A stretch of 25,801 nucleotides of DNA from a virus (lineage: Duplodnaviria > Heunggongvirae > Uroviricota > Caudoviricetes): the IMG/VR virus record IMGVR_UViG_2693429554_000019. One strand, given 5' to 3'. Below, in pieces: positions 1,054 to 8,418 of this stretch (positions are counted from its first letter, which is position 1; the number at the start of each line of letters is the position of its first letter). The notes below the pieces were generated by a model. It did no database searches. It had not been told where the DNA came from and was given only the letters and a program-made list of their open reading frames with translations. A program made the translations under genes and the position numbers.

Positions 1054-1241
1054 AAAAAATGCCCTCCAGTAGAGAGCATTTTTACTGTATGTATAACCAG
1101 TGTCAATGTATGAAATCCTACGACCATACATCTCACTGAAGCCATAATGAAGTTGGCTATTCTTTTTGCTATGTGAGCATGTAACTTTTGCGGTTAACCT
1201 GCGGCTCATTTTTATTTTAGACGCAGATATAAAAGCAAAAG

Positions 1242-1433
1242 TTATCGTGAGTTTTTAGTACAGATTTTTTTGGATTTACTAATAGTTCCATCATTGCAAA
1301 CGAATTTGCCATCTGAGGTACAGTGAGAAACACCTCCCTTTTTCCCTGAGCAGGGATAATTTCTAGCATAGGTAGTTAGTGGGTTTAATAACAAAGAACA
1401 TGACAAAACCACAAAAAATACCTTACCAAGCAT
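1242..1433 (-). CDS. Small (63 aa) cysteine-rich protein with N-terminal signal-peptide-like segment; candidate moron
   Basis: ATG at 1431-1433 sits 15 nt after the repressor stop with GGGAGG between them. N-terminus [23 protein letters not shown] is hydrophobic; the remaining 40 aa carry 4 Cys and many Lys. Lower GC than neighbours. Confidence 0.5.
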
Positions 1434-1448: not shown

Positions 1449-2105
1449 CTATTTAACATACTTGACTGTTAAACTTATAATTTTACCAATTATTTCAATG
1501 TCTTCTATCTTGCATTCGAAGGCTCTGTTTCCACCCTCGACGAAGATTCTTCCACCGGGTAAACGAGTAATGTCACGGATCGTTATTTCGCCATCAATAC
1601 TTATTACCCATTTACCATCACGTATATCATCAAATTCTTTATCACAAATAAATTCAGAATTGTTATCTGTGATGACAAAAGGTTTTTTAAACGTAGAGGG
1701 TAGAAATTCCTTATCAAAAATATAAAAACCGTCTTTCTGCAATGCTCCATCAGACAATAAATATTTTTCTACTTCTATAGTATTTGTATTTGCTGATGCT
1801 TGCTTTGAACCATGCCCTGTTGTTAGCCAATTAAGCGAGGTGCCCGTTTCAAGGGCGCACTGGATTACCCAATCTGCTGGAAAAATATCACGCATATAGC
1901 GCGTTGCCATGGTGCTCTTAGAAACACCTAAATGATCACAGAGAGCCTGACGGGTACCGAACCCATATGCTTCAACTAAACGTTCTATGGCTTTCTTACC
2001 GCCGCTATTGAAATCCACAAGTCCTCCAAAGAAATCCAAAATCCGTTGACAGATTCCAAAAGCGATCTTAAAGTTGAACCAGAAGTGTTCTTTTGGAGCC
2101 TTCAC
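1449..2105 (-). CDS. cI: CI-type prophage repressor (186 CI-like: N-terminal HTH, C-terminal oligomerisation domain)
   Basis: Segment LVEAYGFGTRQALCDHLGVSKSTMATRYMRDIFPADWVIQCALETGTSLNWLTTG matches the CI-repressor HTH pattern. Divergent from the Apl/CII operon and directly upstream of int, as in 186. The track start is GTG (2103-2105); the true start may be an internal GTG preceded by GGAGGA, about 28 codons downstream. Confidence 0.75.
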   Translation of the reverse strand: MKAPKEHFWFNFKIAFGICQRILDFFGGLVDFNSGGKKAIERLVEAYGFGTRQALCDHLGVSKSTMATRYMRDIFPADWVIQCALETGTSLNWLTTGHGSKQASANTNTIEVEKYLLSDGALQKDGFYIFDKEFLPSTFKKPFVITDNNSEFICDKEFDDIRDGKWVISIDGEITIRDITRLPGGRIFVEGGNRAFECKIEDIEIIGKIISLTVKYVK

Positions 2106-4232: not shown

Positions 4233-5086
4233 GCACCATCCTGAAATGGGCGGGAAATAAAACCGCCGTAATGTCCGAACTGAAAAAACATCTTCCAGCT
4301 GGCCCGCGACTGGTTGAACCTTTCGCGGGTTCCTGTGCTGTGATGATGGAGACGGATTATCCCAGCTATCTGGTTGCGGATATTAATCCTGATTTAATCA
4401 ACCTCTATAAAAAGGTTGCCGCTGATTGTGAATCGTTTATATCTCGCGCCAGAGTTTTATTTAAGGAAGCAAACAGGGAGGTGGCTTATTACAACATAAG
4501 GCAGGAGTTTAATTACTCAACTGAAATTACTGATTTCATGAAAGCGGTATATTTCCTGTATCTCAATCGTCACGGTTACCGTGGGTTATGTCGCTATAAC
4601 AAGAGCGGGCATTTCAACATTCCCTACGGTAATTATAAAAATCCGTATTTCCCTGAAAAAGAAATTCGCGCATTTGCAGAGAAAGCCCAACGAGCAACGT
4701 TTATCTGCGCCAGCTTTGATGAAACGCTGGCGATGTTGAAGGCGGGGGATGTGGTGTATTGCGATCCGCCGTATGACGGTACGTTTTCCAGCTATCACAC
4801 TGATGGTTTCACTGAAGATGACCAGTATCACCTGGCATCCGTTCTTGAACATCGGTCATCAGAAGGACATCCGGTCATTGTTTCTAACAGTGACACATCC
4901 CTGATCCGTTCGCTGTATCGCAATTTTACTCACCACTACATCAAGGCAAAACGCAGCATCGGCGTAGCAGCTGGTGAGAGTAAATCTGCAACAGAAATCA
5001 TCGCTGTTTCTGGGGCGCGCTGCTGGGTGGGATTTGATCCTTCGCGTGGCGTGGATAGTTCTGCCGTGTACGGAGTGCGTGCATGA
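4229..5086 (+). CDS. dam: Orphan DNA adenine methyltransferase (Dam-like)
   Basis: Motif [10 protein letters not shown] and motif IV DPPY ([12 protein letters not shown]); C-terminal AKRSIG resembles the E. coli Dam C-terminus. No restriction-enzyme partner nearby. GGAGG 8 nt upstream of ATG 4229. Stop overlaps the A start (ATGA). Confidence 0.85.
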
Positions 5087-7497
5087 GCCATGCTGATATG
5101 AACAACTGCAGCGGCTTTAACGAGGCCGCCGCAGCATTCTCATGGAACAGCCCGAAAAAGGCGATTAACCCTTATCTGGACCCGGCGGAAGTTGCGCCGG
5201 TTTCTGCGCTTTCAAACCTGATCACTCTGTACGCTGCCGATAACAAGCAGGAACAACTGCGCCGCGAGGCACTGAGTGATCAGGTCTGGGAGCGTTATTT
5301 CTTTAATGAATCCCGTGATCCTGTCCAGCGCGAAATGGAGCAGGATAAGCTCATTAGCCGGGCAAAGCTGGTGCATGAGCAGCAGCGTTTTAATCCGGAC
5401 ATGGTCATACTGGCGGACGTTAACGCCCAGCCTTCCCATATCAGCAAGCCGCTGATGCAACGTATTGAATACTTCAGCAGCCTGGGCAGGCCAAAGGCTT
5501 ATTCCCGCTATTTGCGTGAGACGATTAAACCATGTCTGGAACGACTGGAGCATGTACGCGACAGCCAGCTATCTGCATCTTTTCGTTTTATGGCAAGCCA
5601 TGAAGGGCTGGACGGCCTGCTGATCTTGCCTGAAATGAGTCAGGATCAGGTGAAGCGCCTGTCTACCCTTGTTGCCGCGCATATGAGCATGTGCCTTGAT
5701 GCAGCTTGTGGTGATTTGTATGCCACCGATGACGTTAAGCCAGAAGAAATCCGCAAGACATGGGAAAGGGTGGCGGCGGAAACCCTGCGTCTGGATGTCA
5801 TCCCTCCTGCGTTTGAGCAACTCCGCCGGAAAAGAAACCGCCGTAAACCCGTACCCTATGAACTCATTCCGGGTTCGCTGGCGCGTATGTTGTGCGCCGA
5901 CTGGTGGTATCGGAAATTATGGAAGATGCGTTGCGAATGGCGGGAAGAGCAGTTGCGTGCTGTTTGCCTGGTCAGCAAAAAAGCATCTCCCTATGTCAGC
6001 TATGAAGCCGTGATGCATAAACGTGAGCAGCGCCGTAAGTCGCTGGAGTTTTTCCGTTCTCATGAACTGGTGAACGAAGACGGCGACACGCTGGATATGG
6101 AGGACGTGGTAAACGCCAGTAGTAGCAACCCGGCGCATCGCCGCAATGAGATGATGGCATGTGTTAAAGGTCTGGAGCTTATCGCGGAAATGCGCGGTGA
6201 CTGCGCCGTTTTCTACACCATCACCTGTCCGTCACGTTTCCATTCCACGCTAAATAACGGCAGGCCCAACCCGACTTGGACAAATGCGACGGTAAGACAA
6301 AGCAGTGATTATCTGGTCGGCATGTTTGCTGCATTTCGTAAGGCGATGTACAAAGCCGGATTGCGCTGGTATGGCGTGCGGGTGGCTGAGCCGCATCATG
6401 ACGGTACAGTTCACTGGCACCTGTTGTGTTTTATGCGCAAAAAAGATCGCCGCGCCATTACTGCTTTGTTGCGTAAGTTTGCCATTCGTGAAGACCGCGA
6501 GGAGCTGGGTAATAACACAGGACCACGCTTTAAGTCTGAGCTGATAAACCCGCGCAAAGGTACACCAACAAGCTACATCGCGAAATACATCAGTAAGAAC
6601 ATTGACGGGCGTGGTCTGGCTGGCGAGATCAGCAAGGAAACGGGTAAATCTCTGCGTGATAACGCTGAATACGTTAATGCCTGGGCGTCTCTGCATCGTG
6701 TTCAGCAATTCCGCTTCTTTGGCATTCCGGGGCGTCAGGCTTACCGTGAACTGCGATTGCTGGCTGGTCAGGCGGCAAGGCAACAGGGTGACAAAAAAGC
6801 AGGTGCGCCGGTACTGGATAACCCGCGCCTTGATGCCATTCTGGCTGCAGCTGATGCTGGTTGCTTTGCCACCTACATCATGAAGCAGGGCGGCGTACTG
6901 GTTCCCCGTAAATATCACCTCATCAGAACCGCTTATGAAATCAACGAAGAGCCGACCGCCTATGGCGATCACGGTATTCGTATTTATGGCATCTGGTCAC
7001 CCATTGCAGAGGGCAAGATCTGCACTCATGCAGTGAAGTGGAAAATGGTCCGTAAAGCCGTTGACGTTCAGGAGGCGGCAGCCGACCAGGGCGCTTGCGC
7101 CCCTTGGACTCGTGGCAATAACTGTCCCCTTGCTGAAAATTTGCCCCAACAAGGGAAAGACAAATCAGCTGATGGGGATACCAGAACGGATATCACCCGT
7201 ATGAATGACAAGGAGTTGCACGATTACCTGCACAGTATGAGCAAAAAAGAGCGCCGGGAACTGACAGCAAGATTACGCCTGGTGAAACCGAAACGGCGTA
7301 AAGACTACAAACAGCGAATTACAGACCATCAGCGACAGCAGCTTGTCTATGAACTGAAGTCCAGAGGATTTGACGGCAGCGAGAAAGAGGTCGATTTACT
7401 CCTTCGCGGTGGCAGTATTCCGTCAGGAGCAGGCCTGCGTATCTTCTATCGGAACCAGCGTTTGCAGGAAGATGATAAGTGGCGGGATCTGTATTAA
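5083..7497 (+). CDS. A: Replication initiator A (rolling-circle HUH endonuclease, P2/186 gpA family)
   Basis: 804 aa. HUH motif in [15 protein letters not shown] and paired catalytic tyrosines in [11 protein letters not shown]. Position after the early operon matches P2/186. Confidence 0.9.
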
Positions 7498-7589
7498 TTA
7501 CGCGGGTTAACAATTCGTGCTCTTAATAATACCAGGCATATCAGGCTGATGAACGTAAAAAAACGTTTTACATCAGTAAGATTATTATA

Positions 7590-7609
7590 TACTGTAAATA
7601 TAAACAGTG
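7590..7609. promoter_or_regulatory. LexA (SOS) box, CTGT-N8-ACAG
   Basis: TACTGTAAATATAAACAGTG read directly from the sequence: CTGT at 7592-7595, AT-rich 8-nt spacer, ACAG at 7604-7607. Lies 42-61 nt upstream of the ATG at 7651 in an AT-rich promoter-like stretch. Confidence 0.6.
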
Positions 7610-7650
7610 GTTATACATACAGTATTTCTTGTGGTGTCATAGGAGGAAAG

Positions 7651-7839
7651 ATGCAGGACTATTTTTTGGAGTCTTTGAAGCTCCAGCGCATTGATTTTTT
7701 TCTTAAGCTTGTAGCGGCTAGTGAGTGTAGTGATGAAGAGAAGGGGCTGGCTCTGCAGTGGGTTTCTGAACTAACAGATGAACTCATGGCAAAAATCAGA
7801 ACCCACGAATACAACCGCTCAATGGATGTCATCAGCTGA
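7651..7839 (+). CDS. Small SOS-regulated protein (62 aa), possibly Tum-like antirepressor moiety
   Basis: ATG at 7651 preceded by AGGAGGAAAG; downstream of the LexA box. The track ORF from 7549 is an untranslated N-terminal extension. Function inferred only from context with the DinI-like gene. Confidence 0.45.
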   Translation: MQDYFLESLKLQRIDFFLKLVAASECSDEEKGLALQWVSELTDELMAKIRTHEYNRSMDVIS

Positions 7840-7849
7840 GGTGACTTTT

Positions 7850-8083
7850 ATGCGCATTGAAATAATGATCGATAAAGAGCAGAAGATTAGCCAGTCTATC
7901 CTGGACGCCCTTGAATCCGAGCTTTACCGCAATCTGCGCCCCCTGTATCCCAAAACGGTAATTCGCATCCGCAAAGGTAGCTCTAACGGTGTGGAACTGA
8001 CAGGACTGCAACTGGACGAAGAAAGAAAACAAGTGATGAAAATTATGCAGAAGGTGTGGGAAGACGACAGCTGGCTGCATTAA
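7850..8083 (+). CDS. DinI-family protein (77 aa)
   Basis: MRIEIMIDKE...ILDALESEL...KVWEDDSWLH parallels E. coli DinI (MRIEVTIAK...IDALAGEL...ETWESADDWF). GAGGTG 6 nt upstream of ATG 7850. Co-directional with the preceding ORF, so probably under the same LexA box. Confidence 0.7.
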   Translation: MRIEIMIDKEQKISQSILDALESELYRNLRPLYPKTVIRIRKGSSNGVELTGLQLDEERKQVMKIMQKVWEDDSWLH

Positions 8084-8099: not shown

Positions 8100-8418
8100 A
8101 GAATTTATTCTGATGGAGGTTAGTTTGGACAACGAGTGAAATAAGGTGGGCGGTCATTTTGATAAATGATCGTCCGCTTTGTGCCAGATATAGTCATTCG
8201 AACCCTGAGAGTTACACTTTTAAGTGATTCAGGGTATGCGCTTACTGGTTACGAATATTGTGCCAGAATCATGTGATTTGATGATTGCCGCTTTGCTTTC
8301 GAGCCAGTAAGTGCTCCACGTTCGCTAACGAATACTCAGGGCATGCAGAAAACTGCTGACTATATTTCTTTCGAAGAACGTGGAATGCATACCAATCCCC
8401 GATAAAAAGGAGTTGGTG
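8100..8418 (+). ncRNA. Candidate IS110-type non-coding (bridge-like) RNA in the left end
   Basis: About 320 nt non-coding region directly 5' of the transposase. Imperfect inverted repeat TCCACGTTCG (8315-8324) / CGAAGAACGTGGA (8372-8384). Hypothesis only. Confidence 0.2.

Follow-up and report, generated by a model that had tools for sequence, protein, structure and literature searches.

The segment from 7590 to 8083 of the 25,801-nucleotide DNA analysed here (the window, taken at its full length) is very probably the SOS-induction operon of an E. coli prophage of the Fels-2/DuoHS type, which is P2/186-like, with a LexA-controlled promoter placed in front of the genes for a predicted 62-residue antirepressor and a separate DinI-family protein. 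Both the module and its role as an SOS switch are already known. The original prediction had taken the region for the input of an SOS-inducible switch, and this interpretation is correct and already established, since in the near-identical prophage DuoHS, whose protein is the same at 61 of 62 residues and whose operator is 100% identical, mitomycin-C induction needs both the gene for the 62-aa protein and a cleavable LexA.

By its gene content, the prophage in the window is P2/186-like and has a 186-type immunity region. On the minus strand lie the integrase gene (1-1053) and the gene of a 186-type CI immunity repressor (1449-2018; Pfam Phage_CI_repr and Phage_CI_C), whose product is 33% identical to the CI of phage 186 and is the presumed target of the antirepressor; the immunity region also contains a CP76-type CII, Fil and a Dam methylase. 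A replication gene A of the P2 type (5083-7497; Pfam Phage_GPA) directly precedes the module. The prophage adjoins rcdA in the E. coli genome that is closest. A search of the whole window against Rfam gave no match.

The first gene of the module is tumA-like and occupies positions 7651-7839 on the plus strand, with a TGA stop at 7837-7839 and a Shine-Dalgarno sequence AGGAGG at 7641-7646 on the same strand, which is kept as AGGAGG(A/G) in relatives. The original prediction called this gene Tum-like, and profile comparisons agree. The 62-aa protein matches phrog_698 at 3.6e-38 and also phrog_8554 (2.4e-8) and the PsP3 TumA family phrog_1993 (2.2e-3), while the N-terminal 70 residues of 186 Tum match the same phrog_698 at 5.9e-6, in register. 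An hhalign comparison of the 29-sequence family with that of the N-terminal part of 186 Tum gave a probability of 96.7% and an E value of 4.2e-10 over residues 4-44 of both, and the two families have in common the motif E-x3-(Q/E)R(I/V)-x5-(R/K)L-x5-C-x4-(K/R)-x-(L/I)A(L/I)-x2-(I/V)(S/A)E(L/I). Pairwise BLASTP of the 62-aa protein against 186 Tum and PsP3 TumA detected no similarity, and the homology to Tum therefore rests on profile methods; as judged by these, the protein and the N-terminal half of 186 Tum are distant homologues. An exhaustive search retrieved 66 representatives at E <= 0.001, and most of these are proteins that stand alone, with lengths of about 35-100 aa. Pfam, NCBIfam and PADLOC contain no model that covers the 62-aa protein, and the PDB no sequence match. 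AlphaFold2 models the protein as a hairpin of two helices (2-23 and 28-61, pLDDT 89), in which the conserved cysteine sits at the turn; a Foldseek search of the PDB with this model returned generic helical hairpins only, none of them at E <= 0.001.

The second gene encodes a 77-aa protein (7850-8083, plus strand), which is the equivalent of PsP3 tumB and of the C-terminal half of 186 Tum. The claim that a DinI-family gene comes next was confirmed by Pfam PF06183 (E 1.3e-22, 80.4 bits against a cut-off of 24.2, covering positions 1-63 of the 63 of the profile). The protein aligns end to end with the solved E. coli DinI (1GHH, residues 1-75), an alignment that includes the C-terminal W-E-(D)-D-S-W motif, and it shows 76.6% identity to PsP3 TumB and 41% to the C-terminal half of 186 Tum. 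With the NCBIfam equivalog of chromosomal DinI, NF007893, it scores 42 bits, below the cut-off of 111, so that we consider it a phage paralogue and not an orthologue of the host dinI.

The original prediction placed a LexA operator, TACTGTAAATATAAACAGTG, 42-61 nt upstream of the 62-aa ORF and on a promoter region, and the fit to the operator, the distance and the position on the promoter were all borne out. This box (box 1, the distal one) extends over 7590-7609 on the plus strand, upstream of the ATG at 7651. It has three mismatches to the 20-mer consensus TACTGTATATATATACAGTA and is the sole match in the window when up to three mismatches are allowed, and none was obtained in 100 shuffles. 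It presents the characters of a gammaproteobacterial LexA box, namely CTGT-N8-ACAG with an AT-rich spacer and a sequence near the consensus, and it is identical in DuoHS, a prophage whose induction is sensitive to lexA(Ind-). The pattern CTGT-N8-ACAG occurs twice in the window for 0.39 expected; its second occurrence, at 10856-10871, scores poorly, lies inside an ORF and is probably due to chance.

The promoter itself was assigned by analogy with p95 of phage 186 and by conservation, and a generic sigma-70 promoter scan called no promoter at the operon. The -35 hexamer TTTACA (7567-7572, plus strand), the counterpart of that of 186 p95, lies 17 nt upstream of TACTGT, which fits the p95 annotation, where the left arm of the LexA box serves as the -10. 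The candidate -10 region (7588-7595, plus strand) is overlapped by box 1, and TATACTGT is invariant in five Fels-2-type sequences. Two -10 candidates can be read in it: TATACT at 7588-7593, with a 15-nt spacer, and TACTGT at 7590-7595, with a 17-nt spacer. TACTGT is the one annotated as the p95 -10 in the 186 GenBank record, and by this analogy the left arm of box 1 would be the -10. A comparison of five diverged Fels-2-type phages shows that all six positions of the -35 are invariant, as are 16 of the 20 positions of each of the two overlapping boxes described below and 27 of the 35 that they cover together; the invariant positions number 5/17 in the spacer between -35 and -10, 22/59 in the upstream intergenic region and 10/26 in the leader. 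At the level of the sequence, gene A is thus followed by what appears to be a LexA-repressed promoter, with a box overlapping the -10 as in 186 p95. LexA control of the operon is supported in this way, binding and induction being carried over from near-identical relatives.

The functional data come from DuoHS. The Phollow study reported that an in-frame deletion of its tum (ECHS_RS04495) abolishes mitomycin-C-induced lysis and the formation of virion foci, and that lexA(Ind-) abolishes them likewise (PMC12055606). ECHS_RS04495 is a 189-nt gene annotated as 'hypothetical protein' and located immediately upstream of the DinI-like gene; reduced translation of this closely following gene could also contribute to the phenotype of the deletion. 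As these genetics were obtained with an orthologue identical at 61 of 62 residues and under an identical operator, the 62-aa gene of the window is probably required for SOS induction as well. The following scenario can be proposed. In the lysogen, LexA bound to the sigma-70 promoter would keep the operon tightly off. After DNA damage, active RecA would provoke the self-cleavage of LexA and the operon would be transcribed. The two-helix 62-aa protein would then bind and inactivate the 186-type CI, derepressing the early lytic promoter and committing the prophage to lytic growth. The DinI-family protein would be translated from a ribosome-binding site of its own, 10 nt past the first stop codon, and would most likely modulate the activity of the RecA filament and so tune the SOS signal.

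Two aspects of this scenario call for discussion: the integrity of the two-gene arrangement and the target of the first protein. In phage 186 both halves belong to a single polypeptide of 146 aa, and one could imagine that the split in the window is a degenerate state, a fused 186-type tum broken by a mutation or a sequencing error, which would make the module a pseudogene. This explanation has practically no chance of being right and is refuted by the conservation of the layout, by the separate Shine-Dalgarno sequences and by the function of the split version in DuoHS. The window contains no fused Tum of the 186 type: the first ORF stops at 7837-7839, and the second lies in another frame, begins at the ATG at 7850 and has its own Shine-Dalgarno sequence, GAGGTGA (7838-7844, plus strand), which overlaps the stop codon of the tumA-like gene. 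This succession of stop, Shine-Dalgarno sequence and ATG is kept across genera, in Fels-2, SopEPhi, a Yersinia phage, Klebsiella phages and PsP3, and the split layout recurs in 56 phage records and in more than 1000 genomes. Furthermore, the stand-alone proteins of about 62 aa form a family of their own, and the N-terminal half of 186 Tum likewise has many close relatives that stand alone, with 63-78 aa. The separate ORFs announced by the original prediction are therefore real. It had flagged this arrangement as worth confirming; a split of this kind had already been published for PSP3 and Fels-2 (PMC3121763).

Concerning the target, 186 Tum binds CI and prevents it from binding its operators (note of the 186 GenBank record; PMC3121763). 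For the family of the 62-aa protein we infer CI binding by analogy: only about 20% of the residues are identical to those of the N-terminal half of 186 Tum, and the DuoHS study says of tum that it acts by 'inhibiting pro-lysogenic regulators', without being more specific (PMC12055606). Furthermore, phages whose 62-aa protein is 98-100% identical to that of the window possess a CI that is only 38-58% identical to the window CI. One could thus suppose that the protein induces the prophage without binding CI, through regulators of the Apl/CII type, through LexA/RecA or through CI synthesis. We consider this improbable: the protein aligns in register with its homologue in 186 Tum, the domain that inhibits DNA binding by CI, the prophage has a 186-type CI, and in the same phages the N-terminal DNA-binding domain of CI is still 58-72% identical, whereas its C-terminal domain falls to 24-41%, which leaves a plausible common target surface. 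An action through CI is thus the reading that we prefer, and since it is the N-terminal domain that stays conserved, these comparisons suggest that the antirepressor recognises this domain. If so, it may act across immunity types.

The original prediction missed a second SOS box that overlaps the first one, as well as a LexA box in the int promoter (1083-1102) treated further on. The second box (box 2, the proximal one, CAGTGGTTATACATACAGTA) covers 7605-7624 on the plus strand, offset by 15 bp from box 1 and overlapping it by 5 nt; it has the form GTG-N10-CAG and departs from the strict motif by GTG in place of CTG in the left arm. About 730 plasmid records contain a match to a 46-nt stretch including both boxes (7585-7630), with identities of 80-90% (about 85% among the matches listed). 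These plasmids are mostly small and mobilizable, and the three that were inspected carry pesticin or colicin N, the match being located about 40 nt upstream of pst (in pPCP1) and of cna (in the colicin N plasmids). When the operators are aligned (window, TATACTGTAAATATAAACAGTGGTTATACATACAGTATTT; colicin N, TATACTGTACATAAAACCAGTGGTTATATGTACAGTATTT), box 2 faces the proximal box in both colicin N and pesticin, and Fels-2 and colicin N have identical proximal boxes. The window thus has the organization of the operators of cna, ce1a and pst: two 20-bp boxes offset by 15 bp, with about 85% identity over the 46 nt and, in common with colicin N and pesticin, the CAGTG junction and the trailing TATTT. 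The 46-nt operator may share ancestry with the colicin and pesticin promoters. Differences are also apparent, as the colicin and pesticin operators control genes unrelated to those of the window, the putative -35/-10 pair of colicin N, read by eye, lies upstream of the boxes whereas box 1 of the window overlaps the -10, and the distance from the -35 to the box is 12 nt shorter in the window than in colicin N.

For colicin operators a dual-box concept has been described, in which two LexA dimers are bound (PMC2994835), and by analogy two dimers would occupy the overlapping boxes 7590-7609 and 7605-7624. The colicin proximal boxes that match box 2 have poor published heterology indices, 11.06-11.61, with 7.55 for the distal and 11.61 for the proximal box of cna (PMC2994835), so that the occupancy of box 2 would depend on cooperativity. 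The weakness of these boxes, the GTG of the left arm and the fact that 186, PsP3 and ESSI-2 manage with one box could also mean that box 1 works alone, 7605-7624 being a non-binding relic or being kept for the sake of the transcription start region or the 5' leader. We regard this as unlikely without being far-fetched. Box 2 is as conserved as box 1 (16/20), whereas the adjacent leader is not (10/26), and the colicin operators, one of which has a proximal box identical to that of Fels-2, are reported to bind two LexA dimers. Moreover, when nine phages are aligned over this upstream region, the only LexA box of 186, PsP3, ESSI-2 and ESSI2_ev015 lines up with box 2, not with box 1, and box 2 is thus found where 186 has its functional single box. 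We infer that LexA binds box 2 too.

The LexA box in the int promoter, CACTGGTTATACATACAGTA (1083-1102, minus strand), is part of a candidate promoter in which a perfect TTGACA flanks it on one side and TAAAAAT on the other, and the int ATG follows about 30 nt downstream. An approximate scan of the whole window gave this box the top score; the scan matrix, a heterology index built from LexA sites, gives recA 6.08 against a published 4.31, and, as published values were not reproduced, it was used only to rank sites within the window. The box is also present in DuoHS, and in diverged relatives CTG-N10-CAG is kept while the spacer varies. It is quite possible, if somewhat short of probable, that prophages of the Fels-2/DuoHS type feed the SOS signal into two places, the double operator of tumA-dinI and an independent LexA-repressed int promoter at 1083-1102. 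If true, the double operator would ensure very tight repression and a late, all-or-none firing, and LexA at the int promoter would make the capacity for excision inducible together with the inactivation of the repressor. In the literature searched, we found a description of neither the double tum operator nor the int-promoter LexA box; they would be small, modest additions to a known module. Together with an almost invariant antirepressor facing divergent CI proteins, they would matter for quantitative models of the induction threshold and for cross-talk between co-resident prophages.

At the other end of the operon, the similarity to Fels-2 and DuoHS stops at the stop codon of the DinI-like gene. 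A strong hairpin with a 19-pair stem follows (8141-8182, plus strand), which is present in strain GPEC1222 and missing from Fels-2 and DuoHS; the segment 8084-8195 folds at -40.9 kcal/mol (z = -5.45). The hairpin is a possible terminator in this variant, although no proper U-tract is found 3' of it. The one 'terminator-like' match of the generic promoter scan, at 7828-7845 and extending over the stop codon and the Shine-Dalgarno sequence, is not conserved in relatives and was dismissed. Relative to GPEC1222, an IS110-family element is inserted at 8189-9683.

The module is widespread. With a 661-bp region as query, it matches 56 phage records from Klebsiella, Salmonella, Escherichia and Yersinia, and the pair of tumA-like and dinI-like genes was found in 1125 of 5426 complete E. 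coli genomes, that is, in about one out of five. Phage P2 itself is not inducible by DNA damage. The module explains why common P2-like prophages of E. coli, Salmonella and Klebsiella, unlike P2, are inducible by DNA damage and antibiotics.

Several known systems can be compared with that of the window. The closest is DuoHS of E. coli HS, with promoter, operator and leader 100% identical to the window over 7557-7660, a CI 88% identical and the same location next to rcdA; it differs by other DNA 3' of the DinI-like stop codon, and the window has in addition the IS110-family insertion. The Fels-2 genes STM2728 and STM2726.1 (STM2727) have about 97% DNA identity to the module of the window over the 661-bp region, with proteins 98.4% and 98.7% identical, the same double SOS box and the same place after gene A. 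The annotation of STM2726.1 mentions similarity to 'TumB of PsP3'. Two base changes in the spacer of box 2 (ATATGT against ATACAT) distinguish Fels-2 from the window, and its integrase and downstream gene are different. In the related Felsduovirus RE2010, CI is about 43% identical to that of the window. In Salmonella, STM2727, which we take to be the dinI homologue, was induced 5.5-14.8-fold by the mutagen MX, in a study where STM2726-2728 were treated as one operon (PMC2225428).

In both Fels-2 and PSP3, tum is split by a stop codon, and in PSP3 the antirepressor activity was found in the upstream gene (Lemire et al., PMC3121763). The GenBank names of the PsP3 genes are tumA ('similar to 5' end 186 tum; UV induction of prophage') and tumB. 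As in the window, the tumA/tumB module of PSP3 consists of a small antirepressor followed by a DinI homologue, has a LexA box and comes after gene A. Its TumA belongs however to PHROG 1993 and not to 698, has no pairwise BLAST similarity to the 62-aa protein, and has just one LexA box in front of it, consensus-like and 20 nt away from the start codon. In phage 186, whose GenBank record annotates p95, a LexA site overlapping the -10, and tum, we find the same use of the left box arm as -10, a homologous Tum N-terminal domain, a DinI-like C-terminal half and a CI repressor of the same type. Unlike in the window, the two halves are fused in the 146-aa protein, which has internal starts, the LexA box is single, and the next gene of the operon is orf97, no homologue of which was seen downstream in the window. 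Finally, the Gifsy dinI-gfoA/gftA operons also associate a LexA-controlled DinI homologue with a small antirepressor (PMC3121763), but they belong to lambdoid phages, dinI comes first, and the antirepressor and repressor are from families unrelated to those of the window.

A second strong LexA box, CACTGGTTATACATACAGTA, is located at 1083-1102 on the minus strand and differs by a single base from tum box 2, the proximal SOS box of the operon which encodes the 62-aa antirepressor and the DinI-like protein. This box is flanked by a perfect TTGACA and by TAAAAAT, and the integrase ATG (1053, minus strand) follows some 30 nt further downstream, an arrangement that makes the promoter at 1075-1105 (minus strand) a candidate LexA-repressed int promoter. 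The E. coli HS prophage DuoHS also carries the box, and the segment containing it is present in 924 of the 5426 E. coli genomes searched. In the diverged phages KP12, 813R9 and 4LV2017, the CTG-N10-CAG of the int promoter is retained and its spacer is variable. A description of this LexA box was not found in the searchable literature. Besides box 1 of the tum operon, the window has a single further exact CTGT-N8-ACAG, CTGTTTGAAATAACAG at 10856-10871; it lies within overlapping ORFs, scored poorly in an approximate heterology scan and is probably there by chance.

Between int and the gene for the CI repressor (1449-2018, minus strand) lies a 63-aa ORF with the annotation 'YdcA family protein' (1242-1433, minus strand), whose product is cysteine-rich and has a signal-peptide-like N-terminus. 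KP12 and 813R9 present another cargo gene in this slot, and such insertions between cI and int may be the reason why int requires its own promoter.

In many database entries the 62-aa antirepressor ORF is lengthened to 84-101 aa through upstream starts, for example the ATG at 7549. These longer versions are an annotation artefact, because the extension (region 7549-7650) would cross the operon's -35 hexamer and its two LexA boxes and is not conserved; the RefSeq start is that of the 62-aa form. This protein is 98-100% identical among phages that share just 38-58% identity in their CI repressors; within CI of these phages, the N-terminal domain is conserved far better, at 58-72% identity against 24-41% for the C-terminal domain. 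A near-invariant antirepressor accompanying divergent repressors could be one of broad specificity, to judge from these sequence comparisons, in which case co-resident prophages could cross-induce.

Directly after the hairpin 3' of the DinI-like gene stands an IS110-family element (8189-9683), an insertion relative to the related strain GPEC1222. Its transposase (8380-9657) matches Pfam DEDD_Tnp_IS110 and Transposase_20 as well as the NCBIfam entry 'RNA-guided transposase', and the 5' leader of about 190 nt (8189-8379) is a possible source of a guide (bridge) RNA; an Rfam scan of the whole window matched no family. The cargo region at 9842-12900, between the SOS operon and the portal gene Q, is variable among relatives: Fels-2, DuoHS and GPEC1222 are each different, and GPEC1222 lacks a stretch of roughly 1 kb (11379-12378). 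Three cargo ORFs of this region (9842-10306; 10485-11210 and 11394-12203, both on the minus strand) had no match in Pfam and PADLOC searches.

In phage 186, the Tum protein fuses an antirepressor half to a DinI-like C-terminal half. Many proteins 75-97% identical to its N-terminal half exist on their own, as ORFs of 63-78 aa, and several of them bear the name 'Tum protein'. Some of these stand-alone relatives may be frameshifted assemblies. Taken as a group, these sequences indicate that the close 186 clade itself varies between fused and split states of tum.
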